From an uncultured Candidatus Saccharibacteria bacterium (GTDB lineage Bacteria > Patescibacteriota > Saccharimonadia > CAILAD01 > BJGX01), in contig CAZKFZ010000002.1 in the NCBI GenBank assembly GCA_964552475.1, positions 70,160 to 134,159 on the forward strand: a DNA stretch of 64,000 nt, written 5' to 3'. Under the pieces are notes generated by a model. That model did not search any database, was not told the origin of the DNA, and was given only the letters and a program-made list of their open reading frames with translations. The translations under genes were made by a program, and so were the position numbers. Below, in pieces: positions 268-16,949 of this stretch. Within the stretch, counting starts at the first letter, position 1, and every line of letters begins with the position of its first letter.

Positions 268-424
268 TAACCAGGTACTACAGGGTTTGTTGATATAATT
301 ACTATTTAGTTGTCAAATTTCAACAGATAAACCATTGATAAAGTTTATCGGCTATCTATATTACTACAAAACACCTTATTTGTCAATAGTTTTATAGGTC
401 TGCCAATGATTGTATAATACCTAA

Positions 425-1234: not shown

Positions 1235-1242
1235 ACAAATTA

Positions 1243-1283
1243 ATGTAAATAAAAAACGGAACAATCCATACACGGTGTTCCGT
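1243..1283 (+). terminator. Rho-independent terminator (aacggaaca...tgttccgtt + T-run)
   Basis: aaaaacggaacaatccatacacggtgttccgttttttat. Stem followed by T6. Bidirectional position between proB and a minus-strand small ORF. Confidence 0.6.
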
Positions 1284-1299
1284 TTTTTATACTGTAGCC

Positions 1300-1461
1300 T
1301 TAGAAAGCTTTGGTGAGTATCCAGATTGCTCCAGCAACGGCTAGAAAGAAAAGACCTAGTCCAACTGGTGATCCCCAGCTAAACCAAGAACCCCATGAAC
1401 GCCAATGTTTTTTTGACCGTTCATACCAATCTATCTGCTCTTGTGGTGTCATTTTTGCCAT
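1300..1461 (-). CDS. Small hypothetical membrane protein (53 aa), not in the ORF track
   Basis: Minus-strand ORF MAKMTPQEQIDWYERSKKHWRSWGSWFSWGSPVGLGLFFLAVAGAIWILTKAF, with a GGAG 8 nt upstream of the ATG. Preferred over the overlapping track ORF 1310..1591(+), which has no RBS. Confidence 0.3.
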   Translation of the reverse strand: MAKMTPQEQIDWYERSKKHWRSWGSWFSWGSPVGLGLFFLAVAGAIWILTKAF

Positions 1462-1663
1462 CTCTTTGACTCCTTATTTAGTTGATATTGAGTCTCAAAA
1501 TTTATGTTTGCCAGTAAGTAAGTTGTTCTTAGGAAACTTAAGCTTACTCTATAGTCTGGGCTTAATAACAAACTTAATTATAGCAAATTAACAAGCAAAG
1601 TATAAAATTAGCTGGGCTTACTCAGTATATAGAGCTGTAGTTTAATATACTATTCTTGCTAGG

Positions 1664-1849
1664 TTAACTTGTCTTAGTGAAACCAATAGTGCCAGTAACT
1701 TGAAGCACAAGACCTATAGTTAGTAATAGCATTTGTAGACTTTGTGAATCTTTCTGCATGATTCCTGTAATGATCAAGAATATTCCTGCAGCTATTAGCA
1801 TTACGTTTAATACTTTGTTACCTAAATTTGAAGATTGTTTTTTTGCCAT
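1664..1849 (-). CDS. Small hypothetical membrane protein (61 aa)
   Basis: Two hydrophobic helices. ATG preceded by aaagaaagtATG, a weak SD. Confidence 0.3.
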   Translation of the reverse strand: MAKKQSSNLGNKVLNVMLIAAGIFLIITGIMQKDSQSLQMLLLTIGLVLQVTGTIGFTKTS

Positions 1850-2039
1850 ACTTTCTTTCTTTTAATAATGCTTATGTTTATTGTAACAAATAGTATACTT
1901 GGTAGACTATAAAAAATTCAATCTTTAATTTGGCTGAGCATACAGGTCACGAACATCGCAAACAGGGGTAATGAGACACATAAATGAGACAAATGGGACA
2001 TAAAACTAGTATGTTTTGCAATTTGAGACCCAGATTTGA

Positions 2040-3026
2040 CTACCTTGACTGAATATCCTTTAAGCTAGTGCCCCCAATGCTATCGGTGTATGGATTTGGT
2101 GTTTCAACCTCAGTTGGCTGCACTGCTACAATTGTGTAAGTTTTTGAAGGATAAAGTCGAGTCTTTTTGAAAATATTTATACATTTTAGGTCCTCTTTTT
2201 TGACGTAATGTCTGAAGTAAGCATTAGCTACTATATCGGCCATCCGTATCTCAAAATACTCCTTTGAATCATAAAAATTCATACAATTTCGAATTTCATT
2301 AGTAAAGACAGCTAGATTCTCTCTAGATTTTGGATATTTGTTAAATCGTTTTATGTATGGATGATTACTTTTCCATGTGTCTAGATGGATGAACCCGCCA
2401 CCATGATATGACAAATGCCACAAAGCGGTCCTCATTGTGTCCAACCAGTAGCGCATATGAATCGGCTTTTCTATAAATCCTTTGTCCATGCGTATCGTTA
2501 GTTCACCAAGTTCACGATCGAATCCCTTGTTTACGCTCCAAATAATAGAGTCGTTAATTGCACCAAATATCGTGCTAGCTAGAAGTTCGATTTTGAGAAG
2601 TGTTTTAAGGCTGCGCTTTGATAGCCATTTGGACATATCAACGTAAAATTGTGCAATTTCGTAATATTCTTTGCCATCTTTTCTATACTGGTCAGCGCCT
2701 TCAAGCAGTTGTCGCACATTCTTAGTTCTCTGGTTTTTAACAGTTTCGACATTGAAATCAATCAAGGGGGTAGCAAATACATGGTGCTTCGTGCCGTGGA
2801 CATTGTTGTTAAGCAAGATATTTTCAGCAAAATACATCAATTGTTCATCATTGAGCAGCCAGCCTTTTACTTCGCCGTCTTTCTTGCATTCTTCGGGTAA
2901 ATCGCTTTCCCACTTTTCAAACACACTTTTTAATTTATCGTACTTCTTGGGACGTACATACACGGCAGCAAACATGCCCATATGCTCGTCCTTGAAGCTG
3001 CCCGAGTCATCTATTCCAACAATCAT
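2040..3026 (-). CDS. Hypothetical protein, 328 aa (N-terminal MIVGIDDSGS, possibly DUF3800/RNase-H-like fold)
   Basis: Long ORF. Start overlaps the stop of the upstream gene by TAATG, indicating translational coupling. Family not recognised confidently. Confidence 0.5.
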   Translation of the reverse strand: MIVGIDDSGSFKDEHMGMFAAVYVRPKKYDKLKSVFEKWESDLPEECKKDGEVKGWLLNDEQLMYFAENILLNNNVHGTKHHVFATPLIDFNVETVKNQRTKNVRQLLEGADQYRKDGKEYYEIAQFYVDMSKWLSKRSLKTLLKIELLASTIFGAINDSIIWSVNKGFDRELGELTIRMDKGFIEKPIHMRYWLDTMRTALWHLSYHGGGFIHLDTWKSNHPYIKRFNKYPKSRENLAVFTNEIRNCMNFYDSKEYFEIRMADIVANAYFRHYVKKEDLKCINIFKKTRLYPSKTYTIVAVQPTEVETPNPYTDSIGGTSLKDIQSR

Positions 3027-3661
3027 TAGGGATATTCAGCGCCAATCACGTTTAGAAGAAGCTCAGTATTTACGTCCTTTGATTCAAGCAAGAAATCTAC
3101 TGTAATCCGTGTAACATCTGGCAAATAGCTTAAAAGCGAATCGCCGTTAACGATCCAGTTACGATTGCTTCCGTCATGCTCAAACACTTTATGAGACTTA
3201 GCTTTCTCCAAAATATCTTCTATCGATCCACTGTGCCCAGGCCTAAATTCAAAAGAAAGTACCGCTTTTCCGGGCTCTACAGTGAGCCTATGTGCCAGAT
3301 AGTCCCTGAAGCCGCTCCACACCAACTCTAAGATTTCGCCGTTGCCAGAAAGACCAAGATCTAACCCACTACTTTGGATAAACTTCATAAAATGGACGAA
3401 AGTTTCAGTTTCATTTATAGCACTGCCATCTGGATTGAACTTATCGGGTCTTTTGACGCAGTAATAAGTTTTGCCTAAGAAATTAAGTGCTGTAAAAAGA
3501 CTTAATGCTACTACAATGTTGCCACCGCCAATATTATCAGATGTCCCTTTATGTTGAAGGTTATGCTTTCTTATGTAGATGAAAGCCTTAAGATCATTTT
3601 GAACGCCCGCAATTCGGTCTAGGATATCTTCGGTACATTTTTCTACAACAGGGTCTCTCAT
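3026..3661 (-). CDS. Hypothetical protein, 211 aa
   Basis: Long ORF, first gene of the coupled pair, downstream of a 410-nt divergent intergenic region. No recognisable motifs. Confidence 0.45.
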   Translation of the reverse strand: MRDPVVEKCTEDILDRIAGVQNDLKAFIYIRKHNLQHKGTSDNIGGGNIVVALSLFTALNFLGKTYYCVKRPDKFNPDGSAINETETFVHFMKFIQSSGLDLGLSGNGEILELVWSGFRDYLAHRLTVEPGKAVLSFEFRPGHSGSIEDILEKAKSHKVFEHDGSNRNWIVNGDSLLSYLPDVTRITVDFLLESKDVNTELLLNVIGAEYP

Positions 3662-4071
3662 AAGCTAACTATAAAACTTAATATGACTGTCATCAAGCAA
3701 ACTATACAGTGGTGATTGGAATGACGACAGTTTTAGCGAGTTTGTCAGAGTTTGTTAGACTTCATTGTAAAATAGTGTTCTGATATTGCAATTGCCGAGC
3801 CTGCTTGATATTCTGAAGTTACGCATAAGCGTTACATTAACAATCTAGCTACACAGTTCCAAGGAGTTAACCGAAGCTCAACATATGAGCGCCCCCGAGG
3901 AATTGGTCATAATCTTATCCCAACGGATACGACAAGAGGTATATTTCACACTGCACCAGCAGTCGTAGGAAACGGCCCAGTTATGATTAATTCTTTAGTG
4001 GTGCTCTTTTATTTGTCTTGAATTGTGCCCAATTGAATTTGTGGTTGGTATAACTACAAAGGAGAAGAGGT

Positions 4072-5403
4072 ATGGATGCTTCAAAGCAGCTCAAGATTGA
4101 GCAAGTTAAAATATCAAAACTAAAAGCAGCAACTTACAACCCGCGCAGCTGGAGTGAGGAGACCAAAAAGCAACTGGCCGATAGCATCAGTCAGTTCGGA
4201 TTGGTAGATCCACTGCTGGTAAACGGTGCCGAGAACCGCAAAAACGTAGTAATTGGTGGGCATTTTAGACTACACATAGCTAAAGAACTCGGGTACAAAG
4301 AAGTACCTGTGGTTTATTTGGATATTCCAGACGAAGCGCGTGAGAAAGAGCTGAACCTTCGTTTAAACAAAGCGCTCGGCGAGTGGAACTGGGAAATGTT
4401 GTCCGAGTTCGACGAAACACTGCTGGCTGATGTTGGCTTTAGTAGTGAAGAGTTGGACACCATCTTCGATATTGAACTTGAGGAGTCGGATACCTTTGAT
4501 CTGCAAAAAGAACTGAAAAAACTGGATATCAAGTCAATTGAAGCCAAAAAAGGCTATGTGTACAAGCTTGGTGATTCAAGGCTAATGATTGGTGACAGTA
4601 CTGTTGATTCTGATTTCGACAAATTAATGGATGGTCAATTGGCTGATATGTGCCTGACGGACCAGCCGTATCGGCTCTCATACACTAAGGGTGGCATCCG
4701 CCAGGGTAAGCCAACTGAGGGCTTTGGTGCTAAGCGCAACCGCAAGTATTTGGAAACTGACGAGTTACCCGAAGACTTTGTCCAGCTCTGGATGGCAAAT
4801 GTTGCCAGGCATGCCAAAGATGATTTCTCTATCATTGCCTATGAAGCGTGGCACAACATGCGTGAAATGTGGGACTGCATGTCCGAGCATTGGACCATCC
4901 GGAATATGCTCATCTGGCACGTACCGAAACGTCATCAAGGTTTTGCTGCCAAGTACAAATTCTTCAGTAAGTACGACATAGCCATGGTTGGCAGCAGCGG
5001 CACCGTGCAGTACAACCACGACGAAGAACCCGATGGCTTACAGGAGGAATATGAAGCTGCACTTTACGCCACAGTCGGTAAGCCGCAATGGGAAGGCTAT
5101 CAGAAAGGCCGCAAGTATCAGCCAAGTGACTTTGTATCGTTTCCTGCAAATGATGAAAAGAGCTCCGGCCAAGGAATAATCTTTGGTACAAAGCCACTTG
5201 AAATCCTAATCCCGTACATAAAAGTACTGACAAGACGTGACGACCTGATAGTTGAGCCCTTCGGCGGGTCAGGATCGACGCTAATTGCAGCTACTATGCT
5301 CAAACGGCGTTGTTTCATCATGGAAAAATCACCAGTTTACGCTGAAGTGATTATGAAACGATGGGAAAATCTTACTGGTCTCAAGCGGGAGAAGCTGTCG
5401 TGA
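4072..5403 (+). CDS. ParB-like nuclease N-terminal domain fused to an N4/N6 DNA methyltransferase (beta-class)
   Basis: N-terminus is ParB/Srx-like (GGHFRL). LTDQPY (motif IV-like, DPPY variant) precedes EPFGGSGSTLIAA (motif I FxGxG), typical of pfam01555 phage/plasmid MTases. SD aaaggagaag upstream. Confidence 0.7.
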   Translation: MDASKQLKIEQVKISKLKAATYNPRSWSEETKKQLADSISQFGLVDPLLVNGAENRKNVVIGGHFRLHIAKELGYKEVPVVYLDIPDEAREKELNLRLNKALGEWNWEMLSEFDETLLADVGFSSEELDTIFDIELEESDTFDLQKELKKLDIKSIEAKKGYVYKLGDSRLMIGDSTVDSDFDKLMDGQLADMCLTDQPYRLSYTKGGIRQGKPTEGFGAKRNRKYLETDELPEDFVQLWMANVARHAKDDFSIIAYEAWHNMREMWDCMSEHWTIRNMLIWHVPKRHQGFAAKYKFFSKYDIAMVGSSGTVQYNHDEEPDGLQEEYEAALYATVGKPQWEGYQKGRKYQPSDFVSFPANDEKSSGQGIIFGTKPLEILIPYIKVLTRRDDLIVEPFGGSGSTLIAATMLKRRCFIMEKSPVYAEVIMKRWENLTGLKREKLS

Positions 5404-5828
5404 GCCGAAATAAGAAAGCAGATAAGAAACAATTGTTAGCGAAGCTCGCGGAAACACCGATTACTGAGGCAGCCTGTAAGAAAGTTGGGCTGCCTCGCTC
5501 AACCTATTACCGCTGGCGGAAAGAAGATCCGGATTTCGCTGAGCAGTGTGATGAAGTTATTGAGCTTAGTGTTGGCCGGATTAATGATCTGGCAGAATCA
5601 CAGCTTATCAACGCCATTAAAAACCAGAACATGTCAGCTATAACATTCTGGCTTAAGCATCATCACCGAAGCTATAGGAATCGACTGGAAGTCGATGCAC
5701 GATTACAACCGGTGCAACAAGAGCTGACACCGGAGCAAACTGAAATGGTAAATAAAGCCCTGCAGCTGGCAGGCATAACAACATTAAACGAGGAGCAAGA
5801 AAATGATGAACGATCAATTAAAGCGTAA
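5400..5828 (+). CDS. Phage terminase small subunit-like HTH protein
   Basis: GLPRSTYYRWRKEDPDF HTH typical of TerS. Probable GTG start at 5400 overlapping the upstream TGA (track ORF begins at 5361). Directly precedes and overlaps TerL. Confidence 0.55.
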   Translation: MSRNKKADKKQLLAKLAETPITEAACKKVGLPRSTYYRWRKEDPDFAEQCDEVIELSVGRINDLAESQLINAIKNQNMSAITFWLKHHHRSYRNRLEVDARLQPVQQELTPEQTEMVNKALQLAGITTLNEEQENDERSIKA

Positions 5829-7311
5829 GTTATTTACCGACAAACTAATCCGGGCAGAGGTAACGGCAAATAGCCACCTATACTTCTTCTCGACCTATTT
5901 TGCTAATTATATGGAGTATGAGATATCTGATCTGCACCGGGAGCTGTTTGCACTCACCGAGCAAGATGAAACACCACTGGCAGTCGTGATGGCGTTTCGT
6001 GGTTCTGCCAAGTCAACGATTATGACTATGAGCTACCCTATTTGGGCGGTAGTTGGTCGGCAGCAAAAGAAATTCGTGGTTATTGCTAGTCAAACACAGT
6101 ATCAGGCGCGGGTTCACTTAACTAACATCAAGCGGGAGCTGGAAAGCAACGAGTTGCTGGCAAACGATCTAGGGCCGTTTGTAGAACAGCGTGAAGAGTG
6201 GGGGTCAACCTCACTCTTCATCCCTAAGTACAACGCCCGTATCACCGCTATATCTACTGAGCAGAGCGTTCGTGGTATCCGTCACGGCTCTAAGCGTCCA
6301 GACCTGATCATTGCTGATGACGTCGAAGATGCACAGTCTGTGAAGACCCGTGAGGGCCGTAACAAGACCTTTGACTGGTATACAGGTGAGATCATCCCCG
6401 CGGGCGATATCAACACAAAAAGAATAGTTGTTGGTAACTTGCTTCACGAAGATTCGCTACTGATGCGTTTAAAGGATTTGATCGAACGTGACGAGATAGA
6501 TGGCTCTTTCATTGAATGGCCAATTGTAAAGCAAGGCAAAAGCACATGGCCGGGTAAATTTCCTGATAAAGCTGTCGTCAAGCGAATGGAGCGCAGTGTT
6601 GCCAGCCGTATCGCATGGGAGCGTGAATACATGCTTAATTTGGTTGCTGACGACGATCAGATTATCGACCGCAAAATGATCCAATACTACGACGAGCTGC
6701 CAACACAACTGCGTGGCCAATATACTCGTATTATCATTGGCGTCGACCTTGCTATATCTGAAAACGATAAAGCTGACTTTACTGCCATTCTAATACTGGA
6801 TATACGTGGCTCTGGCGACAGACAGCGGATGTATATAAGGCCAAATATCGTAAACAAGCGGCTGTCATTTCCCGATACGGTTAGCTTGCTTAAGGAGACT
6901 AGCGACAACTTTCGATACCCGAAGCTTTACATCGAACAGACAGCCTATCAAGCGGCAGTGGTACAACAACTCACTGCTGATGGGCTTGATGTGCAAGGTG
7001 TGACGCCGCACTCCGACAAGCGTTCACGACTTAATATGGTAGCTGACAAAATTCAACGTGGTGTCATCCTGTTTCCGCGTATGGGCGCAGAGGAACTAAT
7101 TACACAGTTGATTGGGTTTGGTGTAGAGAAACATGACGACCTAGTAGATGCCTTAACGACTGCTGTTCTTGAGTTTATACGTGATGATCGCCGTGGAGGC
7201 ACAGTAACAATAGGCAGAGCCTCGGATATTTTTGGTGATAGGTATCCTGGATCAAACCGTCGCAGAAGTGGCCGTGATTATTGGAATCGACGGTTAGATG
7301 ATTGGGATTAG
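5803..7311 (+). CDS. Phage terminase large subunit
   Basis: Walker A-like RGSAKST and Walker B IIADDVED in the N-terminal ATPase. C-terminal RNase-H-like nuclease (IGVDLAISEND...D). 502 aa. Confidence 0.8.
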   Translation: MMNDQLKRKLFTDKLIRAEVTANSHLYFFSTYFANYMEYEISDLHRELFALTEQDETPLAVVMAFRGSAKSTIMTMSYPIWAVVGRQQKKFVVIASQTQYQARVHLTNIKRELESNELLANDLGPFVEQREEWGSTSLFIPKYNARITAISTEQSVRGIRHGSKRPDLIIADDVEDAQSVKTREGRNKTFDWYTGEIIPAGDINTKRIVVGNLLHEDSLLMRLKDLIERDEIDGSFIEWPIVKQGKSTWPGKFPDKAVVKRMERSVASRIAWEREYMLNLVADDDQIIDRKMIQYYDELPTQLRGQYTRIIIGVDLAISENDKADFTAILILDIRGSGDRQRMYIRPNIVNKRLSFPDTVSLLKETSDNFRYPKLYIEQTAYQAAVVQQLTADGLDVQGVTPHSDKRSRLNMVADKIQRGVILFPRMGAEELITQLIGFGVEKHDDLVDALTTAVLEFIRDDRRGGTVTIGRASDIFGDRYPGSNRRRSGRDYWNRRLDDWD

Positions 7312-7338
7312 GCAACTTCTGGCAAGTGGTAGAGCTGT

Positions 7339-8118
7339 CTACTTAGCTTCGGCTTGTTTTAGTTTTACCACTTCGTCGCGGTGGTTCCAGAAAATACAGT
7401 AGTCACAGTCTGGATTTGCATCTGGGATTATATCGGCGTCCAGAGTCTGTTTCAGTTTCAAAATAGTAGGCTCGACCCACTCATCATTGCCGTCGTGTTC
7501 AATCACGTGGATGTCAAAGTTAATGCAGGCATCAAAAGACTCTTCGTTGGGCTTGCCGGTGCAGTAAACCCAGTATGCTTTGTTAGACATTTTGAGGCCG
7601 TTCTTACGTAGAAGCCATTGGTATACCTCCAACTGACGTCGATAACCATTATGATAAGATGCATCGCCTAGTTCTGTTACAGGGTCTGCTTTAGCCGTAG
7701 CCTTGTAGTCAGCAACGATATACTCACCATTACCGCTGATCCATAGGTCGTCGATAGCACCGGTGATAATCAATTTAGTAGGCTCATGTAAATACTGCAC
7801 GCCCTTGAAGTTCTCGCGCCATTCATCAATCATTTCGTGTGGTGCGGGCTTTGCATCTACGCCAAACTGATCAAGTAGAGGATGCGAACCACCGTTTTCT
7901 CGCAATGTATCAAACTCATTTTTTAGCATGGAATCTACAGCTGAGTTCAATGCAAATGGGAACCCAGGTGGACGACCAAGTCCAAGTCGACGATCAATAT
8001 AGAAGCACCGTGGACACTCCATAAATAAGTCTATTTTTGACCGTGAAAGTTTGAAAGGTTTATCGTCGGTAGGCGAGTATATATTTCTTGTTCTTTTGCC
8101 TTTGTAATATTCGCTCAT
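7339..8118 (-). CDS. Cas4-like / RecB-family PD-(D/E)XK nuclease with Cys cluster
   Basis: N-terminal KLSRSKIDLFMECPRCFY, a central D...VADYK core, QLEVYQW (QxxxY) and C-terminal CDYCIFW. Start overlaps the MTase stop by ATGA. Confidence 0.7.
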   Translation of the reverse strand: MSEYYKGKRTRNIYSPTDDKPFKLSRSKIDLFMECPRCFYIDRRLGLGRPPGFPFALNSAVDSMLKNEFDTLRENGGSHPLLDQFGVDAKPAPHEMIDEWRENFKGVQYLHEPTKLIITGAIDDLWISGNGEYIVADYKATAKADPVTELGDASYHNGYRRQLEVYQWLLRKNGLKMSNKAYWVYCTGKPNEESFDACINFDIHVIEHDGNDEWVEPTILKLKQTLDADIIPDANPDCDYCIFWNHRDEVVKLKQAEAK

Positions 8119-11100
8119 TTTGTAGAAGCTTCAATTAGTTGGAGTTCTTTATCGGTCAGATCATAAAGCTTTCCAGCTAGTATATCTATCTTGTCCCATA
8201 GTTCGCCAGCGTCATCAGTACTATTTCCTATTATTCTTTCACCAATATTGATAAGTTCATTCTTAATTTTTCCCCTCTCTGGTGATATTTTAGGTATTCG
8301 AAAAAATGTTTTCACGGAAGAAATAGGAAGCAAATAGTCTTTTTCACCTGGGCTTTTAAGCAGTAGCTCAAACATATATTTATTTATTGCAGAATTCAAT
8401 AGTAGCCAGAGATAAATAACTTCTTTTTTATTTTTGCTAGCAATAATAGCAGCCCGTCCCATTGGAAAAACAATATCTTCATCAGTAAATGAAAAGCATT
8501 TTGGATTTTTGACACTCCATACTATCTTAAATTCCTGCTCAAGAACGACATAGCCCTGACTGTTCTTCGTTAGTTGAATTGCTGCTTTATCCTTAGGGTA
8601 AAAATCTTCTGTTAGGAGAATTACATCCTTCATACCTTTTGAATTAAATAATTTATAGTATTTATTTTCATCGTCGACTGACTTCAATATTTTAGAATTA
8701 TTCAAAGTGAATCCTACATCAAAATAAAAACTTGAACCGAAGTAATTAACACTTTTTGCGTGGTTATAATAAATATCCGCTATCTCAGCAGACATATATT
8801 TCGATAATATACTTTTTTGGGGGCCGCCAAGGGTGTGTATAGACCAGTTGTTGATACTCTTAATAAGTTCTTCTTTATTAACTGGTTGATAATTTATTTT
8901 GTTCAAATGGTCTAATTTACTCTTTGTGAACAGCGCAGTATATTCGCTATTTTTTTCATTTATAACAAAGAGTACAAGACTACTAGTAGGTACAGTGGAG
9001 GTAGCCGTATCCCCCTTAAACACCATATCATCAACTACCAATAATCGATTTAGAGTTTGAGTTTCTGAAACAAGGTATCGAACAACGTCAAGGTCTTTGG
9101 CGGTTAATAGGTTTTGTGGCACGATAAATGATATGCAACCCTTAGGTTTAGCTAAGCGCGTTGCCCTAGCGAAGAAAAATGCATAGAGGTTTGGCTTAGG
9201 TGGGTATGTCTTTCTGCTTATAGGGGTACTATGAAGATTAACTCCGCAATAATTGCCAACTGATTCATCAGAGCTTTTAAGATATTTAGCAAAAGTGTCG
9301 TTTGTCTTTGAAAGTGCATTAATACTTATATAGGGCGGATTAGCAATGACGATATCAAAGCCGCCATTTTCAAATACATCTGGGAAGTTGAGCTGCCATA
9401 TAAAAAAAGGCTTTACCTTCGACATTTTGAATTTCGATAGGCGATCGATTTCTTGATGCTGATTATTCTCTTTTAGTGTTTCTTCAATTAGTTCCCATTC
9501 AGTGTCATTTATTTTTGATTGTATCTTTCTTTTTACTATTTTGTCAGTACACGCAAAATAATCCTTATGAAGTTGAATCAATAAAGTACGAGTTTTTTCA
9601 GATTTACTAAATTTATCAAAGAGGCCTTGATTGTTATTTGGTACATTCTGCCTACCTTTCAGTTGGATTAACTGCTTATTAATTGACTTTAGCTGTGACT
9701 GGAGTTGATTCTGTTTGATTGGGGTCAACATGTTAGTAGAATGTAAACTCAGATACTCTCGCTGTAAATCTGCCTGCCTTAAAACTAAATTGCTCGTTGC
9801 TTCTACATCGAAATTATGGTCGCCATAAATAAGCTCATCATCGAAGAGTTTAATTTTTCCGTACTTCTCAATTAGACTGTTGCCCTGCATAATCTTAAAA
9901 TCCAAATTAGGCAAAGGTCTAATGCCTCTATTCTTTGCGTTATCATCAATCTCTTCATCAACAATCAGAGTCAAAAAACAACGCAATCTAGAAATCTCAG
10001 TGGCAATAGGTTGTATATCAACCCCAAAAATGGATTTATTTATTATTCCAAGCTTTCGAATGTAGTTAGCACTCTTGTTATCAAATTCTCTTTTTAACTC
10101 CAGGCTCGTAATACTTTGAAGTTGCTTATTCAACCACCATTTTGCGTCAGGATCCAGTATCGATATTATGTGCAAGATTTTCTGAAGCATTCCAATCGGG
10201 AACGCCCCAGAACCACAAGCTGGATCAATGACAGTTAGTTCGCTGAGGGCACCAAGCACTAACTCCACTTCCTCTTCATTTAGTTTATTGCCAATATCGT
10301 CTTCTAAGTCATAACTTACTAACGCACTAAGTTTGCTTTCAGGGACAATTGTCATTGCTGATAAAAACTCAATTAAACTATTGCTTACCATATAGTCGAC
10401 AATTTCTCTTGGAGTATAAAAACTCCCTGTACTTTTTCTTACGGTTTCACCTGTTTCAGGATTGATTCTTGCAAGAAGATTTTCAAAAACCCGCCCTAGC
10501 ATTTCAGGATCAATCGATAGCTCAGTATCTATACTAGTATTTTCGTCTACAGTAAAATTGTATCTCTCAAGAAGATCAAATAAATCCAATAACCACTTGT
10601 CTGTGATTGTTTTTGGTGAGCTATCGTCTCCATAATAATCAATTATGTCATCGCTAAAAAGGCCCCCATTTAAGTAAGGTATTAAGTCATATGGTGCTTG
10701 CTTAAATTTAGATAGCCTAGCATCCATTTCCTTATTTAGGACCTCAAAGAACAATGGTTCCAATACGCTTTTAAAATATTCTGGCTTCCTCGAGGCTTCT
10801 AATGATAGAACCGCATTTGGAATTAATGGTATGCCTTTAATGCTCCTCTTTTCCCGTAAAAACCAACAAAATATAATTCTACCAATTAACCTAACTGCAA
10901 ATTCTTGACAATCTTCGTTGCTACCGGGGTATTTTAATTCTTTTTGAATATTTTTTGCACCAACAAGGCGGTCGTATAATCTTGCAATTTCTTTATAAAA
11001 GGCATTGTTAACAACCTCAAGTGAGAATCTTTCTTGCAGCTCTTCTAGTGTGCTTACAGCACCTTTTGCAATTAGATAATTGAATGGTGTGGCCGTTTTT

Positions 11101-11507
11101 GCTCTTGGGCCTAAAACATAAGAGTAGCGCCTTGGATTTGAGAAAATTTTTTTAATCTTACCTTTAATTTCATCTATGGAAATTGAGATATATGAAAGTC
11201 TCCATTCTTGTTCACCGGTGGTCGACACATAAGCAACTAATGCTTTGTCAATGTTGTTCTCAGCCATTAGCTTGAATGTGTCTGTCGCCAACTTAACACG
11301 CACAGAAACAGTTGCATCGTGCGTAATGACCAATACATTATTAAATCTATTGTCTAAAAAATGACCTATATTGTCAGCTTTTTTAATGAGAGACGAAGAA
11401 TGTTGAATATTTTTAGATTCTGAATATAGCTCAGTTTCAACGAGCCCTGTTACAAGTTGCTTAAATGTCTGTAAATTGAATTCCTTTGATAGATCATCTC
11501 TATTCAT
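8115..11507 (-). CDS. Large gamma-class N6-adenine DNA methyltransferase (Eco57I / type IIG / BREX-PglX-like), 1130 aa
   Basis: FYTPREIVDYMV, motif I DPACGSGAFP, motif IV VIANPPYI. Long N-terminal region and a ~400-aa C-terminal putative TRD. No obvious PD-ExK nuclease motif in the N-terminus. Confidence 0.8.
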   Translation of the reverse strand: MNRDDLSKEFNLQTFKQLVTGLVETELYSESKNIQHSSSLIKKADNIGHFLDNRFNNVLVITHDATVSVRVKLATDTFKLMAENNIDKALVAYVSTTGEQEWRLSYISISIDEIKGKIKKIFSNPRRYSYVLGPRAKTATPFNYLIAKGAVSTLEELQERFSLEVVNNAFYKEIARLYDRLVGAKNIQKELKYPGSNEDCQEFAVRLIGRIIFCWFLREKRSIKGIPLIPNAVLSLEASRKPEYFKSVLEPLFFEVLNKEMDARLSKFKQAPYDLIPYLNGGLFSDDIIDYYGDDSSPKTITDKWLLDLFDLLERYNFTVDENTSIDTELSIDPEMLGRVFENLLARINPETGETVRKSTGSFYTPREIVDYMVSNSLIEFLSAMTIVPESKLSALVSYDLEDDIGNKLNEEEVELVLGALSELTVIDPACGSGAFPIGMLQKILHIISILDPDAKWWLNKQLQSITSLELKREFDNKSANYIRKLGIINKSIFGVDIQPIATEISRLRCFLTLIVDEEIDDNAKNRGIRPLPNLDFKIMQGNSLIEKYGKIKLFDDELIYGDHNFDVEATSNLVLRQADLQREYLSLHSTNMLTPIKQNQLQSQLKSINKQLIQLKGRQNVPNNNQGLFDKFSKSEKTRTLLIQLHKDYFACTDKIVKRKIQSKINDTEWELIEETLKENNQHQEIDRLSKFKMSKVKPFFIWQLNFPDVFENGGFDIVIANPPYISINALSKTNDTFAKYLKSSDESVGNYCGVNLHSTPISRKTYPPKPNLYAFFFARATRLAKPKGCISFIVPQNLLTAKDLDVVRYLVSETQTLNRLLVVDDMVFKGDTATSTVPTSSLVLFVINEKNSEYTALFTKSKLDHLNKINYQPVNKEELIKSINNWSIHTLGGPQKSILSKYMSAEIADIYYNHAKSVNYFGSSFYFDVGFTLNNSKILKSVDDENKYYKLFNSKGMKDVILLTEDFYPKDKAAIQLTKNSQGYVVLEQEFKIVWSVKNPKCFSFTDEDIVFPMGRAAIIASKNKKEVIYLWLLLNSAINKYMFELLLKSPGEKDYLLPISSVKTFFRIPKISPERGKIKNELINIGERIIGNSTDDAGELWDKIDILAGKLYDLTDKELQLIEASTK

Positions 11508-11512
11508 AGCGC

Positions 11513-14500
11513 CTATTTAAGCTCCTCGGTAAGTATGAGCATACTAGACTGGTTTCTTGACGCATCGGCTGCACGTCGAATTTTAGCTATATATTGAATT
11601 GGTATACGTTCGCTAAGGTGCTTGTATGCCTCATCTGGGGCATCACCTATAACAATATTCCTTATTAACTTTAGCTCTGAGTCTGCGAGTGCGTCTAGGT
11701 CGTAAATGGATTCAATTAAATCCTGACAATAATTTTTCTGACTTGAACTTTCTAGTTTTTCGGAAAGAATCTTCAATTTTGCAATTGCTTCTTGACGACC
11801 TTTATCTGGGACTGATTTGTGAGTATTTGTTTTGTATAAATGATCTCGAACTTCTTGGAATAATTTATGGTAATTTTCTGATACTTCCTGTCCCTGCAGA
11901 TTTTTATCCGCTTCAAACAATTCCAGCGCTAATTCAGTGTTAATATACTCAGTTTCTTCTGAACCAACTTGCTTCAGGCAAAAGACACTTGTCTCACCAC
12001 GTTTACCATAGAGAACAACACCCTTTGTTGCATTATTACTCTTTCTTCCCACCTTAGATTTATTGACTGCTTCTTGCTCTACTAAATCTAGAATTTCTTT
12101 ATTGTGTTTGAGAGAGTTCCAAAGGTTGCGGAATTTATTAATTGAACTTTCTGATTCTTCCTGCGACTTCGCGTCGTTAAATTTATCCGAGTAGTAGGCT
12201 TTCAGCTCTTCCTCGCTCGTGAGCTTTTTAGTGTCATCACCCAATAGAGCATTAAAGATGTGTACCTTTATAGTAGATATGGATTTGGTATGTGTTTCTT
12301 CTTCACCGATTTCACTCGGGAAGAAGTTGTAAATGAATAGTTCTTCATAAACCTTTTTATTTACACGATTGATTCGCCCAATACGCTGGATCACTCGAGT
12401 CGGGTTATAGGGGATGTCGTAGTTATATACGCAATCTGCTCTGTGTAAGTTATATCCTTCTGAAATTGCGTCAGTAGCAAGTAAAATTTGAAATTGATCT
12501 TCTTGCTCATCCACTGGCAGACCGGCGTCAAAGTTTTTGGCAATAATCTTTTTGGTAGATTGATTAGCTTCTTGTCCTGAATAGGTAATTATCTTGTCTT
12601 TTAGTTCAGGATCTTTTTTGAGTTGATCTGCAATGTAATAAATTGTGTCGGTAAACTCACTGAAGACGATAACCTTACCATCAGTAGTTTTCATTTTACT
12701 TTTCAAATGTTCAACAAAAGTATCGAGCTTAGGATCGACTTCTTTTGTGCTTTCATCCTCAAACCAAAGTTTCTGTATTTGTCTTAGGATTTCTCCGTCC
12801 TTGCGTAATAGTTCTATGTAGTCAGGTTGTAAATATTTAGCCTTAATAATTCGGAAATCTTTAGAATTATTTTCCGAAAGTTGTTTTTGTAACTCTTCTA
12901 TTGGGTCGGTTTCAGACAGATTTTCATCGATTTCGATTTCATCCATCAGATCATCAGGTTCAGGTATATCAAGTTTTTTGGAAATTGGCACTCCGCCAAC
13001 TTTCTCATACCAATTGATCACTAATTGGTTCGAGATGATCATTTTATTTAGAGTGCTCCTGAAAGCATTCTTTGAGCTTTCAAATCTTCTAACCAGTAGG
13101 TGGCGCATGAACTTAGAAACGTTCGATTGACCCTGCTCAAGTCTTTGAGCAATGTCATCTTCGTCATCAAATTCTTTGGCTAGTTCCTTTTTGTAGTCTT
13201 CACGACCCTCATCAGTAAAGTACTTGGTCGGCTGGTATCGAGCAGCCAGGTAATGCTCGCCCGGAACAGCTTGATCAGATTCTGGGTAGATTGTATATAA
13301 AGTATTTTTGTAAAGATCAGTTATTTCCTGCAAAGGATATTCGATGTTGGCAGGCTCGTTAACTTTGGGAAAATGAATACCCTGAGTTTTTAAGTCTTCT
13401 CGGTACTCATCAATTCTCTCGAGATCCAATCGAGAACGTCTTATTACTGCGTCTTCAATCAAGCGGCGCAGTTCTTTAGCAAGTGCCTCAGCCTTTTGCT
13501 TGATCTTTTCAGAATCCGATTTTTTATCTTTTCGCAGTTTTGAATATTCACGAATTAGTTCACGGAATGCCATACCTAGATTTTCAGCGGTTTTTAACGT
13601 TGCGGCGCCAGGAATTTGGAAGAGCTTGATTAAGGCGTATACGTCTTTTGGGTCATTATTAAATGGGGTAGCTGAAAGTAGCAATACCTTATGACCAATT
13701 GCTAATTGGTGAATATCGGTATAATCATATGTCAATTCGTTTCTAAACCTATGAGCTTCATCGATTACAATTAATTTCGGTCGCTTGTCTTCTTTATAAT
13801 ATTGGAAACATTCATTAATTTTGCCCCGACTCCAGACTTTCCCAGTAAATCCAAATTTGTCCATGTACTCCTGCCATTGGTCGCATAAATGAGGAGGTGC
13901 AATTATAACTGTGTAAAGGTCATCACGTTTGTATAAGTTATATGCAATAGTTGAGCCGATAATAGATTTGCCTAAACCAACAACATCAGCAACAATCGCG
14001 CCGTTGTAGTCGTCAATTTTTGCTATGCCTTCCTTGATGGCGTCGATTTGATATTTAAGATTACTGTATAAGCCTCCGGTTATCTTGTAGGGCATATGGA
14101 CATCGCTGTCTTCTAAGTCGCCAAAATATTCACGAAGAACCTTAATATATACGTGATAAGGGCTAGGTAATTTATATGGCCAAGTTGATTTCTTGAATCT
14201 ATCAACAATTTCTGGAGCATCGGACCTGTCAATTAAGGTGACAGCTCTTCCGTCGTTCCATTCTTTCTCAAAAGTATCGCTCCACTCTTTAATGTAACTT
14301 GGTTCAGTAAACATATGGTTCTTTTCACCCTGTTTGCGTAATCCGCTAGTTGTCAGGTTGCTTGAACCCATGATTACTAAGCCGTTAGGGAATAAAGAGC
14401 CTATGTCTGTGTCTTTCTTGAGTCTAAATACATAATATTTAGAATGCTCTTCTTCAGATGACATTTTTATTTCTAGAGTGCCGTTTTTAAGTTTTTCGAA

Positions 14501-14866
14501 TAAGATGTCCAGAGTTTCACTGCTAGCAACCTCATCAAAATCCCTTAGGCTATTAATGCTAGCGATTGAAGTTTCAATAAAGTTATCAATTTTTTCTGAT
14601 CTGGTGGCACTTGCATAGCTACCAATTTTTGATTTGAAGCTAGTCCCGTCCTGATAGTTTTTGCCAAGTTCACTTATAACCTTAGGATCCAACTCCATAC
14701 CAACAAGAATTCTAATGGGTATGTCTTTTATGAGATCCTTAATTTCTTCGAATCCGCTAAAGAAGAAATACCCAACGGCGATGTCGATTGATTCACAGTG
14801 TGGAGCAATCTTTGCGATCTCATCAGCCAAAATTCGACTATGGTTGTCGATAATCCCACTTTGCAT
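11513..14866 (-). CDS. PLD-family nuclease domain fused to an SNF2-family helicase, 1117 aa
   Basis: N-terminal HKD motif HSKYYVF...IMGSSNLTTSGL. Helicase motifs I DVVGLGKS, II LIVIDEAHRFRN, III LLSATP, and the helicase-C block LATDAISEGYNLH...QRIGRINR. First gene of the operon, followed 5 nt later by the MTase. Confidence 0.8.
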   Translation of the reverse strand: MQSGIIDNHSRILADEIAKIAPHCESIDIAVGYFFFSGFEEIKDLIKDIPIRILVGMELDPKVISELGKNYQDGTSFKSKIGSYASATRSEKIDNFIETSIASINSLRDFDEVASSETLDILFEKLKNGTLEIKMSSEEEHSKYYVFRLKKDTDIGSLFPNGLVIMGSSNLTTSGLRKQGEKNHMFTEPSYIKEWSDTFEKEWNDGRAVTLIDRSDAPEIVDRFKKSTWPYKLPSPYHVYIKVLREYFGDLEDSDVHMPYKITGGLYSNLKYQIDAIKEGIAKIDDYNGAIVADVVGLGKSIIGSTIAYNLYKRDDLYTVIIAPPHLCDQWQEYMDKFGFTGKVWSRGKINECFQYYKEDKRPKLIVIDEAHRFRNELTYDYTDIHQLAIGHKVLLLSATPFNNDPKDVYALIKLFQIPGAATLKTAENLGMAFRELIREYSKLRKDKKSDSEKIKQKAEALAKELRRLIEDAVIRRSRLDLERIDEYREDLKTQGIHFPKVNEPANIEYPLQEITDLYKNTLYTIYPESDQAVPGEHYLAARYQPTKYFTDEGREDYKKELAKEFDDEDDIAQRLEQGQSNVSKFMRHLLVRRFESSKNAFRSTLNKMIISNQLVINWYEKVGGVPISKKLDIPEPDDLMDEIEIDENLSETDPIEELQKQLSENNSKDFRIIKAKYLQPDYIELLRKDGEILRQIQKLWFEDESTKEVDPKLDTFVEHLKSKMKTTDGKVIVFSEFTDTIYYIADQLKKDPELKDKIITYSGQEANQSTKKIIAKNFDAGLPVDEQEDQFQILLATDAISEGYNLHRADCVYNYDIPYNPTRVIQRIGRINRVNKKVYEELFIYNFFPSEIGEEETHTKSISTIKVHIFNALLGDDTKKLTSEEELKAYYSDKFNDAKSQEESESSINKFRNLWNSLKHNKEILDLVEQEAVNKSKVGRKSNNATKGVVLYGKRGETSVFCLKQVGSEETEYINTELALELFEADKNLQGQEVSENYHKLFQEVRDHLYKTNTHKSVPDKGRQEAIAKLKILSEKLESSSQKNYCQDLIESIYDLDALADSELKLIRNIVIGDAPDEAYKHLSERIPIQYIAKIRRAADASRNQSSMLILTEELK

Positions 14867-15002
14867 TTTTATTTTACAACTCCATACATAATTATCTATT
14901 CTACGCTAATTACATCTGTCATTCCATAGCTACACAATGTTTTATTTAATTTCATAATATTCCTAGCTTTTAACTAGGTTTGGCGGTACCTTGTTGCTTG
15001 CA

Positions 15003-16265
15003 ATGGAGCAAGTAACAGACATAAAATACTGCCTTTATGCTCGGAAATCGAGCGAACAAGACGAACGTCAGGCCATGTCGATAGATTCACAGCTAAAGGA
15101 GATGTTGGCGCTTGCTGCCCGTGACGGTTTGAATATAGTCGAGACCAAGCATGAAAGCCATTCAGCCAAAGAATCGGGGCGTCGGCCTGTATTTAACGAG
15201 CTGTTGGAAGATTTGAGGGCTAATAAATTCAACGGTGTACTTACATGGGCACCAGACAGGCTATCACGTAACGCTGGCGACCTAGGATCGTTAGTTGATC
15301 TAATGGACAATAATAAGCTGCAACAGATCCGCACATTCGGACAGAGCTTTCGCAATACGCCAAACGAAAAATTCTTACTAATGATTCTGTGCTCACAAGC
15401 GAAGTTAGAAAATGATAATAGAGGGGTTAATGTTAAGCGAGGTATTCGCGCCAAGTGCGAAACTGGCTGGCGACCTTGCATGCCTCCGTTAGGCTACTTT
15501 ACTAGGGGAGCAAGCGGTAAAGGTAAAGACGTTATAATTGACCAAGAGCGAGCACCTTACATCGTCCAGATGTTTGAAATGTCCGCCGAAGGCAAAGGCG
15601 GCAGACACATTCGACAGTGGTTGGAAGATAATAATGTCAAAACACGTGGCAATAAATCTATACCGTTAAGTATGATTTACCGGATATTAGGGAGTTCTTT
15701 CTACTACGGTGAGTTCGAATACCCCAGGAAAAGTGGGAAGTGGTATAAGGGTCAACACGAGCCACTTATAACCAAAGAGTTGTTTGACCAGGTGCAGATT
15801 CAGCTAACAGTACCAGTAAAGACCAAATGGGGCTCGATTCCATTCCCTTATAAGCAGTTCTTGAAATGCTACAGCTGTGGATCCAGCATTGTTGGTGAGC
15901 AGAAAACTCGGCATTATAAAAATGGCAATACGCCAACATTCACCTATTACCACTGCTCAAGACAGGTAAAGCGAGACTGCAAAGAACCATTTGCCCGCGA
16001 GCAAGACATTGCAGATGAACTAAGCTTAATGTGCAACGAATTAATTACCGACCTAACACTGCTTGAGCCAGGATTGCGCGACGCAATAGATAAGTTTACT
16101 AAGATGATGAAAGTTACTCACGAAACCTATAGCCCAGATGAAATGGTGGGCGGTTATATCAAATATGTGCTACGCGAAGGCACACTTTTCGAGAAAACTA
16201 GATTAATCCGGAACCTGAATATTAAGCTCGCATTACATGATCGCAAACTTGTAAAAATTGACTAG
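15003..16265 (+). CDS. Large serine recombinase (resolvase/integrase family)
   Basis: YARKSSEQ with the catalytic Ser near the N-terminus. C-terminal zinc-ribbon cysteines (CYSCGSS...YYHCS). The track starts at TTG 14991; ATG 15003 is more likely. Confidence 0.8.
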   Translation: MEQVTDIKYCLYARKSSEQDERQAMSIDSQLKEMLALAARDGLNIVETKHESHSAKESGRRPVFNELLEDLRANKFNGVLTWAPDRLSRNAGDLGSLVDLMDNNKLQQIRTFGQSFRNTPNEKFLLMILCSQAKLENDNRGVNVKRGIRAKCETGWRPCMPPLGYFTRGASGKGKDVIIDQERAPYIVQMFEMSAEGKGGRHIRQWLEDNNVKTRGNKSIPLSMIYRILGSSFYYGEFEYPRKSGKWYKGQHEPLITKELFDQVQIQLTVPVKTKWGSIPFPYKQFLKCYSCGSSIVGEQKTRHYKNGNTPTFTYYHCSRQVKRDCKEPFAREQDIADELSLMCNELITDLTLLEPGLRDAIDKFTKMMKVTHETYSPDEMVGGYIKYVLREGTLFEKTRLIRNLNIKLALHDRKLVKID

Positions 16266-16302
16266 TAGCTTAAAAGCTTGTGCTTGTTGCTATAATGAGG
16301 CT

Positions 16303-16743
16303 ATGAAACGCCAAACGCTGTCACGCTACGACCAAATTACCGTTGATCCTCGACACGGCGGTTACAGTGATATTAGGCTTTGGCCATGTTATATGGTGTT
16401 TAGTAGCTTAATCTTGTTTCTAGCTCCGCAGATCGGTATGTTCCTCTCAATAATGCTTGTAGGTGTTCCTTCATTTTTCATCGCTAAGAAAGTAGCGGAT
16501 ATGACGACTTCGGATGAGCCACTTGTCAGATACGACATTGAAAAGTGGGTTGATGACATGATGGCGGCAGAAGACAAAGGGTTACCGTTGCCAGCAATGG
16601 AAGCTTACGCATACATAGAGCCTATTATCGTAAAACAGAAGGTCGCCAAACAACCTGAACCGATAAGTTCTAGACCTGCTTTCAAACAGATAACGATAGC
16701 ATCTAGGATTAGAACCAAAAAACCGACTCTTCAGTCGGTTTAA
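16303..16743 (+). CDS. Hypothetical membrane protein (about 146 aa) between the recombinase and the tRNA
   Basis: ATG with a GAGG SD (track ORF begins earlier, at 16258). Two predicted TM helices. Confidence 0.35.
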   Translation: MKRQTLSRYDQITVDPRHGGYSDIRLWPCYMVFSSLILFLAPQIGMFLSIMLVGVPSFFIAKKVADMTTSDEPLVRYDIEKWVDDMMAAEDKGLPLPAMEAYAYIEPIIVKQKVAKQPEPISSRPAFKQITIASRIRTKKPTLQSV

Positions 16744-16813
16744 TAGTAAATCGATTCAGCTTCTTTATCTTGGTTAAGATTTGCACCGTACGGGTCACGT
16801 TTGGTGAAAATCG

Positions 16814-16888
16814 TGGCTGGGACGGAAGGATTCGAACCTTCGATCTCTTGAGCCAGAATCAAGCGCCTTACCACTTGGCCACGTCCCA
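16814..16888 (-). tRNA. tRNA-Gln (anticodon CTG), CCA encoded
   Basis: Hand-folded cloverleaf TGGGACG TG GCC AAGTGGTAA GGC G CTTGA TTCTGGC TCAAG AGATC GAAGG TTCGAAT CCTTC CGTCCCA G CCA. Track ORF 16740..16922(-) rejected. Confidence 0.8.
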
Positions 16889-16949
16889 TTGTTGTGGATA
16901 TATGTAATATAAGAGCAACCAACAGTCTAGCATTTTTATATATTTTTTT

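Follow-up and report, generated by a model that had tools for sequence, protein, structure and literature searches.

A 64,000-nucleotide stretch of DNA from an uncultured Candidatus Saccharibacteria bacterium (contig CAZKFZ010000002.1, positions 70,160 to 134,159; the window) carries three adjacent genes, labelled here g1, g2 and g3, which encode a protein with a phospholipase D (PLD) nuclease domain and an SNF2 motor, a PglX/Eco57I-like N6-adenine methyltransferase (MTase) and a Cas4-like nuclease. We found that the conserved unit at this locus consists of two genes, g1 and g2, that are strictly paired, translationally coupled and co-evolving. The pair probably encodes an ATP-dependent defence module of two proteins that resembles restriction-modification systems and travels as cargo of a compact integrative element, with g3 outside the unit. 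The module is an unnamed variant in the design space of BREX-related, DISARM, Type III and Type ISP systems and is widespread, especially in the Candidate Phyla Radiation (CPR). The three genes occupy the following window positions.

11513..14866, minus strand: g1, PLD(HKD)-SNF2 motor nuclease, 1117 aa; predicted restriction subunit
8115..11507, minus strand: g2, PglX/Eco57I-like gamma-class N6-adenine MTase with a target-recognition domain (TRD), 1130 aa; predicted modification and specificity subunit
7339..8118, minus strand: g3, Cas4/RecB-like PD-(D/E)XK nuclease with CxxC...CxxC, 259 aa; accessory/backbone gene

A preliminary description of the window had presented the three genes as a single system. 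Its account of the locus was accurate: the open reading frames (ORFs) are intact and co-directional, and all of the motifs and domains it quoted for the three proteins are present, in agreement with Pfam. Read directly from the sequence, the TAG stop codon of g1 is followed by five nucleotides (GCGCT) and then the ATG of g2, and an ATGA is common to the stop codon of g2 and the start codon of g3.

The g1-g2 pair and its proteins

A word-prefiltered search with the g1 protein returned 5,551 proteins at E<=1e-10, some of which may be generic SNF2 proteins. The best 120 of these 5,551 matches are 1084–1129 aa long. Nearly all of the 120 combine PLDc_2, SNF2-related and Helicase_C domains, and where a source is named it is mostly a member of CPR/Patescibacteria. 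When one genome was scanned for each GTDB species, at least 495 species representatives, again mostly CPR/Patescibacteria, proved to encode a g1 relative, and 80 of these 495 loci were fetched for neighbourhood analysis (fetched relative loci carry L-numbers). Directly behind g1, and in its orientation, 77 of the 80 have a g2 homologue; the other three end at a contig edge. When the ORFs were clustered, 79 loci had g1 and 78 had g2, a frequency that none of the other clusters came near, and there was no conserved third gene with the pair among the ORF clusters of the 79 loci. The neighbourhood check that the preliminary description had proposed for its triad thus gave a split answer, with g1 and g2 conserved together and g3 not.

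The spacing of the two genes is equally constrained. Among 69 full-length pairs, a 4-nt overlap joins g1 and g2 in 42, and the genes are at most 27 nt apart in 62; an insertion of 0.85–1.46 kb, such as a RhuM or IS200-like gene, separates the partners in 7. Identity matrices of g1 and of the N-terminal half of g2 are correlated (Mantel r = 0.75, a value reached by 0 of 999 permutations). The same g1-g2 pairing was seen in 16 loci among IMG/VR viral contigs, and more distant homologues, at 23–38% identity, are adjacent in Parabacteroides distasonis (38% identity to g1, 35% to g2), Prevotella nigrescens, Thermus oshimai, Synechocystis pSYSX, Rhodococcus ruber and Haloferax alexandrinus. These distant pairs occur in either gene order, and their HxK, Walker A, DExH and NPPY/F motifs are intact.

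The g1 protein matches three sets of Pfam domains, PLDc_2 (residues 25–203), SNF2-rel_dom/ResIII (271–483) and Helicase_C (713–835), and its parts map to the window as follows.

14258..14794, minus strand: g1 residues 25–203, single-HKD PLD nuclease domain (PLDc_2, 2.2e-08)
12362..14056, minus strand: g1 residues 271–835, SNF2-type superfamily 2 (SF2) ATPase, both lobes (ResIII/SNF2-rel_dom and Helicase_C)
11516..12259, minus strand: g1 residues 870–1117, family-specific C-terminal region without a Pfam match

Its motifs are HSKYYVF at residue 141, GSSNLTTSG at 167, GLGKS at 297, DEAH at 369, ATPF at 399 and QRIGR at 827, and H141, K143, G167–N170, GLGKS, DEAH and QRxGR are invariant in 25 homologues. 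The HxK motif occurs once in g1, and the active site would need a dimer because each chain holds this single motif. The single-HKD PLD enzymes Nuc, BfiI and SauUSI use a dimeric active site. The structure of MtsD, from the MANTIS system, points the same way (bioRxiv 10.64898/2026.09.23.753747). The C-terminal region is aligned at full length in every close homologue and is absent or diverged in most distant ones; it is a candidate MTase-docking domain. No modified-base reader domain was detected in g1 with Pfam.

An AlphaFold2 (AF2) model of g1 (pLDDT 76) matched, in Foldseek, the SNF2 remodellers SWR1 and CSB together with RapA and FANCM, which are double-strand DNA translocases. Sequence searches of the Protein Data Bank (PDB) gave generic SNF2/DEAD matches for g1 and none for g2 or g3. 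Since both the PDB and Foldseek searches yielded only generic matches for g1, no solved defence complex is close to it. The best PADLOC match of g1, 'C3a139 HKD+Snf2' (3.6e-47), was considered as its family and rejected; the full-length member of that profile is the SNF2 protein of locus L092 (9.4e-122). C3a139 is merely an entry in a list of genes near type III CRISPR loci and represents a broader HKD+Snf2 family (PMC6546367).

The g2 protein matches the Pfam families Eco57I (7e-26), N6_Mtase and MmeI_hel, the MmeI helical spacer (2.5e-05). It has FYTPREIV at residue 363, DPACGSGAF at 428 and NPPY at 723; DPACGSGA and NPPY are invariant among the homologues aligned, and the order of motifs, FxGxG and then NPPY, is that of the gamma class. 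Its best PADLOC profile is REase_MTase_IIG (8e-57). Its AF2 model (pLDDT 73) is matched best over the full length by PglX/BrxX proteins of BREX (8q56, 9ewz and 8c45; E ~1e-17), and next by CamA, MmeI, BpuSI and DrdV. Two regions at its ends are of particular concern here.

11103..11507, minus strand: g2 residues 1–135, N-terminal alpha/beta domain at the position of a Type IIG nuclease (AF2 secondary structure H-EEE-H-E...)
8118..9017, minus strand: g2 residues ~831–1130, hypervariable target-recognition region (drop in identity)

The absence of a nuclease motif from the g2 N-terminus, noted in the preliminary description, was borne out: no D...(D/E)xK is conserved in residues 1–135 among 30 homologues, the window copy has V60/T62, and the region has no Pfam match. 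DUF7814 was rejected as the identity of this domain, its match falling at residues 248–286 within the helical spacer. At the other end of the protein, mean identity is 26% C-terminal to residue 560 versus 50% for the N-terminal 560 residues. The closest relative, L003, encodes a g1 protein 90% identical to that of the window, and DNA-level alignment to it is missing over window positions 8121–9895, which hold the 3' half of g2 with the TRD, while the flanks are 70–75% identical. This pattern points to a recent exchange of the predicted g2 specificity domain. Such divergence of the specificity module is typical of restriction-modification systems.

These features bear on a reading in which g2 is a self-sufficient Type IIG enzyme and g1 a helicase-nuclease that works on its own, for example as a SauUSI-like Type IV enzyme, and is only its neighbour. 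The REase_MTase_IIG match and the MmeI spacer fit such an enzyme, as does REBASE-based annotation, which labels similar Prevotella genes Type IIG (PMC5608340); MtsD, the effector of the MANTIS system, is reported to be structurally similar to SauUSI (10.64898/2026.09.23.753747), and g1 has the same PLD-plus-helicase layout. However, the N-terminal domain of g2 has no conserved catalytic PD-(D/E)XK residues, g1 lacks a detectable modified-base reader, and independent neighbours would not be expected to stay strictly adjacent, to overlap by 4 nt and to co-evolve across phyla and domains. We therefore give this reading only a slim chance.

Several further observations concern the pair and its neighbours. 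Among Bacteroidales, the gene inserted between g1 and g2 is RhuM in L061, L065 and L066 and an IS200-like transposase in L072 and L055. The pairs of L088 (Thermus), L089 (Synechocystis pSYSX), L090 (Rhodococcus) and L091 (Haloferax) are plasmid-borne, with 23–30% identity to g1, and span four other phyla, archaea included; a VapC or hypothetical gene sometimes stands between the partners. Defence-type neighbours of pairs include OLD-family, DUF4238, SLFN/AlbA_2, DUF4365, TIR, VapC and CRISPR ring nuclease genes. The only recurrent large neighbour, cluster c13 (5 loci), has no Pfam or PADLOC match. Cluster c10, a DUF2779 protein of ~500 aa encoded a few genes downstream of the pair in L008, L017, L070, L081, L004 and L038, is suspected to be another Cas4-like PD-(D/E)XK protein; a trypsin-like protease gene follows it in three of these six loci and also follows the g3 homologue of L031. 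A nucleotide search of the operon against phage genomes gave no match and g1 had two weak partial matches among phage proteins; because the phage searches were nearly empty, the pair is not typical phage cargo.

The Cas4-like nuclease gene and its contexts

The g3 protein matches Pfam PDDEXK_1 (4.9e-14) and has CPRC at residue 35, DYK at 137, QLEVY at 162 and CDYC at 238. C35, C38, C238, C241, D123/124, D137-x-K139 and Q162...Y166 are invariant in the alignment, so that, judged by sequence, its catalytic motifs are intact. The PD-(D/E)XK and four-cysteine features are common to g3 and the Cas4 of CRISPR systems. It scored 20.2 bits against a cut-off of 65 for the Cas4 equivalog TIGR00372, and cas genes were absent from the g3 contexts examined. 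The g3 family comprises at least 7,958 proteins. In the window, g3 occupies the boundary between the cargo and the backbone of the element.

A homologue of g3 occurs anywhere in only 9 of the 80 pair loci and follows ~8% of pairs. It is directly downstream of the pair in L003, L009 and L033 and one gene away in L014, L031 (with a UvrD helicase between) and L080 (with DUF4238 between). The pair loci that carry g3 are spread over at least four g1 lineages, in each of which the nearest relatives lack it. In the sister element L092, the large terminase subunit (TerL) is 90% and g3 82% identical to those of the window, and DNA homology runs at 77% identity from the start of the ParB-MTase gene to the start codon of g3 (window 4072–8119) and then stops; the cargo upstream of g3 in L092 consists of C3a139-SNF2, DUF4391, Type III Mod and Type III Res genes (REase_III 5.5e-279). 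In L093, g3 is 69% identical to that of the window versus 40% (g1) and 49% (g2) for the adjacent pair.

Homologues of g3 at 60–67% identity were also found in conserved housekeeping contexts, M23 peptidase-g3-MGMT beside mreBCD-PBP2 and rplS-g3-rnhB-yraN; in a further one, a cell-wall synthesis cluster (mraZ, PBP and Mur ligase genes) lies upstream of the g3 homologue. Island-borne copies of g3 are polyphyletic among the chromosomal copies. A general rule by which g3 tracks TerL was rejected: g3 is present in 3 of 12 TerL loci, and six loci have g3 without TerL. The preliminary description had allowed that the Cas4-like gene might follow the terminase as a phage exonuclease; this comes close to holding in L092, and g3-TerL linkage does hold within the window's own element lineage, but it is not general across TerL loci.

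These results bear directly on whether g1, g2 and g3 form an obligate three-component system in which the Cas4-like nuclease is a dedicated second nuclease. The ATGA overlap of g2 and g3 agrees with such a system, as do the loci in which g3 stands behind the pair or one gene off (those named above together with L093 and L179), and the polyphyly of island-borne g3 suggests repeated recruitment. Nevertheless, so few pair loci have g3, while the nearest g1 relatives do without it; L092 keeps g3 with its TerL block and Type III cargo, the homology ending exactly at the start of g3; g3 is far more conserved than the pair beside it; and close homologues serve in housekeeping contexts. We consider a three-component system improbable, and the triad did not survive as a unit.

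In L116 and L117 a g3 homologue lies directly behind the HsdR gene of a Type I system, with a 1-nt gap. This linkage led us to scan metagenomes with the g3 alignment, and 80 loci were recovered. Among those with at least 2.5 kb of upstream sequence, restriction-modification or helicase genes stand within 6.5 kb upstream in 10 of 33, always co-directional, versus 0 of 33 downstream among those with at least 2.5 kb on that side (Fisher p = 0.0009). The immediate upstream gene is separated from g3 by 1–33 nt or overlaps it by 8–17 nt. Genes just upstream of g3 encode Type III Res, a HARE-HTH/PD-(D/E)XK protein itself directly behind HsdR, a retron-type reverse transcriptase (PADLOC RT_VI 1e-62), a DRT nitrilase-like protein (1.3e-99), a defence-type HerA (4.8e-173), a Ppl-like ATPase, a DUF262/GmrSD-like protein, DUF4365 and UvrD.

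Thus, g3 behaves as a promiscuous terminal gene of unrelated CPR defence operons, and as a housekeeping gene as well; it is not a core part of the pair. It may, speculatively, be an accessory that processes DNA ends after cleavage, or else the site upstream of it may be an insertion hotspot; operon fusion is favoured because the gaps upstream of g3 are very short. The recurrence of a Cas4-like nuclease at the end of many unrelated defence operons suggests that CPR immunity has an accessory layer; we did not find such a layer described, in a literature search that was not aimed at that point.

In L092, positions 86–8992 encode in order an SNF2 protein without an HxK motif, DUF4391, Type III Mod and Type III Res, which is a helicase-augmented Type III arrangement. 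Members of the g3 family in other loci include L116 8001–8759 and L092 9001–9774; the scan loci are L118–L197. Two genes downstream of a chromosomal g3 homologue, L113 encodes a DUF3800 protein (9896–10552), a family that also occurs in the window's element (see below).

Relation to known systems and proposed mechanism

The scores of g1 and g2 against curated equivalog profiles all fell far below the cut-offs, and no already named system was matched. For g1, these were DrmD NF038317 (153.6 bits versus 610), NF038318 (76.1 versus 950) and the NCBIfam 'phospholipD_antiphage' profile (127.9 versus 1100), the last being compared by name. Scores were likewise low for DpdE (103.8 versus 500), MAD2 (29 versus 720) and, for g2, BREX-1 PglX (BREX_1_MTaseX, 66.6 versus 500). 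Partial PADLOC matches linked g1 to DrmD (1.2e-35), HmaA (3.6e-26, likewise compared by name) and BrxHII and g2 to DrmMI and PglX. Genes for DrmA/DrmB, PglZ/BrxC and DUF499/MtsB were not found in the window and were not recurrent in ~80 related loci; because DrmA/DrmB, PglZ/BrxC and DUF499 are absent, the pair is not DISARM, BREX or MANTIS (Gao_RL).

The partial matches would also be left by a decayed, non-working remnant of DISARM class 1, BREX type 3 or MANTIS/BR type 2, since g1 partly resembles DrmD, HmaA, BrxHII and 'phospholipD_antiphage' and g2 partly resembles DrmMI and PglX. Yet the scores are far under the cut-offs, the two-gene form is preserved intact and at full length across hundreds of species, its catalytic motifs are invariant, and it is not accompanied by a DrmA/DrmB, PglZ/BrxC or DUF499 neighbour. 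Decay of this kind is highly improbable.

MANTIS is the closest characterised relative of the pair. BREX-related type 2 systems combine an HKD-Swi2/Snf2 helicase, an N6-MTase, DUF499 and DUF3780 (PMC12839542), and type 2, formerly Gao_RL, has now been characterised as MANTIS (bioRxiv 10.64898/2026.09.23.753747); MtsB is named DUF3780 in the former paper and DUF3870 in the latter. In that system the PglX-like MtsC must be loaded by MtsA, an AAA+ protein, together with MtsB before it hemimethylates its 6-bp asymmetric sites; the effector MtsD is a dimeric PLD-SF2 protein whose two PLD domains form one active site and which is needed for restriction; and restriction is strongest on inverted site pairs (10.64898/2026.09.23.753747). 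Like g1, the MANTIS (MtsA-MtsB-MtsC-MtsD) effector has an N-terminal single-HKD PLD domain and an SF2 helicase, and in this methylation-based defence a large PglX-like N6-adenine MTase sets the specificity, as we propose for g2. Unlike MANTIS, the pair has no DUF499 AAA+ ATPase (MtsA) beside it in the window or among the recurrent clusters of the 79 loci, and instead of a small MtsB gene it has no conserved small ORF on its flanks, its partners being spaced as tightly as described above. Because the pair lacks MtsA and MtsB, methylation by g2 would have to work loader-free.

Other known systems share parts of this design. DISARM class 1 also brings together an SNF2 helicase (DrmD-like), an N6-adenine MTase (DrmMI-like) and a PLD nuclease (DrmC-like), but its defining core, DrmA and DrmB (DUF1998), is absent from the pair, and in g1 the PLD domain is fused to the SNF2 motor. 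Type III restriction-modification systems likewise have two subunits, an MTase with specificity and a dependent SF2 ATPase-nuclease, and Pfam ResIII matches g1; by analogy, one-strand methylation and an inverted-site logic would be expected of the pair. However, Type III Mod is a beta-class enzyme whereas g2 is gamma-class and Eco57I/PglX-like, and the nuclease of Type III Res is C-terminal and of the PD-(D/E)XK type, in contrast to the N-terminal PLD domain of g1, which is coupled to an SNF2-type motor and comes without a RE_endonuc match; REase_III was not among the best 25 of the 29 PADLOC matches of g1.

The layout of g2, an N-terminal domain, MmeI-like spacer, gamma-class MTase and TRD, is that of Type IIG/IIL enzymes (MmeI, BpuSI, DrdV), except that no catalytic residues are conserved in its N-terminal domain. 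Type ISP enzymes (LlaGI/LlaBIII) have the same domain inventory as g1 and g2 together, but as a single Mrr nuclease-helicase-MTase-TRD polypeptide, whereas the pair has two ORFs and PLD instead of Mrr. In SauUSI and CglI/NgoAVII a PLD nuclease is coupled to a helicase-like ATPase, and the single HKD implies a dimeric site; but SauUSI is a Type IV enzyme that needs 5mC and has its own reader domain and no MTase partner, and CglI/NgoAVII have separate R (B3+PLD) and H subunits and a C5 MTase. Finally, although PglX/BrxX of BREX gives the best full-length structural match to the g2 model, PglZ, BrxC, BrxA, BrxB and BrxL are not present with g2. The preliminary description had likened the operon to a split Type ISP or Type IIG enzyme or a stripped-down DISARM class 1 set; the resemblance stands for the conserved, coupled and co-evolving pair and fails for the third gene.

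Taken together with these comparisons, we propose a mechanism in which g2 would read a short, probably asymmetric site through its variable C-terminal region and methylate adenine (N6) in host DNA. On unmethylated sites of incoming DNA, g2 would recruit or license g1, which is envisaged as a dimeric SNF2-type double-strand DNA translocase whose two single-HKD PLD domains make up one nuclease active site. ATP-driven translocation could then allow communication between distant sites, upon which the DNA would be cut, probably with a preference for inverted site pairs like that of Type III, Type ISP and MANTIS systems. One-strand methylation of an asymmetric site, dimerisation of g1, its recruitment by g2 and the orientation preference are inferred from analogy with these systems.

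Several points weigh against a defence module of this kind. A PglX-like MTase acting without a loader is the weakest assumption of the mechanism: MtsC cannot bind DNA without MtsA, the authors suggest that the same may hold for other BREX-type systems, and the nuclease activity of MtsD was not reconstituted in vitro (10.64898/2026.09.23.753747). An autonomous Type IIG enzyme would be compatible with the PADLOC profile of g2. We found neither a name for the two-gene form nor an experimental characterisation of it in the literature, and promoter support for a single three-gene transcript is weak. On the last point the operon layout agrees with the one transcript that the preliminary description had placed under the divergent region upstream of g1, but the promoter itself does not stand out: sigma-70-like sites near g1 are no commoner than in shuffled sequence, and a promoter and terminator scan gave nothing above chance. 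The same description had called the system undescribed, and this needs narrowing. The absence of a name for the two-gene form agrees with it; against it, the arrangement had been seen in passing (PMC9881135, without a name) and its relative MANTIS has been characterised.

In Prevotella intermedia 17F the 1117-aa 'Type IIG' gene Pin17FIII has an SNF2/RAD54 helicase upstream and an inverted partial copy downstream (Johnston et al., PMC5608340). When E. coli expresses Pin17FIII alone, GGYGAB is methylated (PMC5608340). This layout is shared by the P. nigrescens locus L095, whose two proteins are homologous to g1 and g2. Membership of Pin17FIII in the g1-g2 family is inferred from the layout of the locus, not from its sequence, and this too counts among the points against. 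Downstream of the pair in L095, positions 14287–16790 hold inverted partial Eco57I-MTase fragments that match the Pin17FIII locus of PMC5608340 and look like a phase-variable TRD shufflon.

If the proposed defence module is real, the pair would be a minimal natural form of the PLD-helicase plus PglX-like-methylase logic of MANTIS, BREX and DISARM, and its two proteins, without an AAA+ loader or PglZ, would offer a tractable model of how site recognition by an MTase is passed to a motor nuclease. Current tools would label the pair only as 'Type IIG' and an unannotated helicase; for this reason, CPR defence inventories would undercount and mislabel it. A bolder proposal combines both lines of evidence. 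The pair would be an autonomous, loader-free relative of MANTIS and BREX, the simplest member of the family, in which a PglX-like MTase directly licenses a dimeric PLD-SNF2 nuclease; and the Cas4-like nuclease would be a CPR housekeeping end-processing enzyme, repeatedly and independently recruited as the last gene of DNA-breaking defence operons (the pair, Type I, Type III, retron, HerA and DRT-type), where it would finish cleaved invader DNA or repair self-inflicted breaks. As a conjunction, this is unlikely, and we put it forward tentatively.

The integrative element and its surroundings

The location of the three genes in an integrative element, claimed in the preliminary description, was upheld: a ParB-MTase/TerS/TerL block flanks them on one side and a serine recombinase and tRNA-Gln on the other (TerS, small terminase subunit). 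The remaining features of the element are the following.

4072..7311, plus strand: island backbone, ParB-N6/N4 MTase, TerS and TerL (Pfam, PHROGs)
14867..14990, no strand assigned: divergent intergenic region between g1 and the serine recombinase, possible promoter (TAGATA-16-TAAAAT, minus strand, 14898–14871)
14991..16265, plus strand: large serine recombinase of the island (Pfam Resolvase, Recombinase and Zn_ribbon_recom; PHROG integrase 1.6e-62)
16814..16888, minus strand: tRNA-Gln, right edge of the island (ARAGORN)

The element extends over window positions ~1300–16900, ~15 kb. At the DNA level, window positions 16667–16879, which overlap tRNA-Gln, align with L003 2446–2236. Outside the island, the genes of the window are housekeeping genes, including SMC, LeuRS, Mur ligase, Obg, enolase, AlaRS and TrmD.

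The cargo position of the pair raises the further possibility that it mainly serves the mobile element, for example through post-segregational addiction or an epigenetic or exclusion function of a terminase-bearing island. Restriction-modification systems can behave as addiction modules. In about 25 of the 80 loci the pair lies beside a serine recombinase, ParB-MTase, TerS or TerL, and in the window it is the cargo of the ~15-kb island. Against this, 55 of the 80 pair loci lack those element genes, and many pairs reside in chromosomal defence islands or on plasmids of unrelated phyla; moreover, addiction and defence are mutually compatible, and the biochemical mechanism would be identical. A function mainly for the element is in our judgement quite unlikely, and a defence module carried as cargo is retained as the preferred reading.

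A similar compact integrative element recurs in CPR genomes (L003, L013, L037, L040, L044, L051, L053, L068, L080 and L092). Its recurrent genes are the large serine recombinase, ParB-MTase, TerS, TerL and often an S24 repressor; it has no capsid, portal or tail genes, and its cargo slot holds different restriction-modification systems in different copies. The recurrent element could be a phage satellite or island that carries terminase genes in CPR bacteria.

The sole promoter-like site upstream of g1 has a -10 hexamer, TAAAAT, that ends 4 nt before the ATG, so that a transcript from this site (14898–14871), if it is used, would have little or no leader; 13 nt ahead of the g1 ATG is a GGAG. 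The DUF3800, 211-aa and 161-aa ORFs of the island gave no PADLOC or PHROG match. The first two of these, a DUF3800 protein of 328 aa and the 211-aa protein, are encoded at the left end of the island (window 2040–3661, minus strand) and may be additional cargo.

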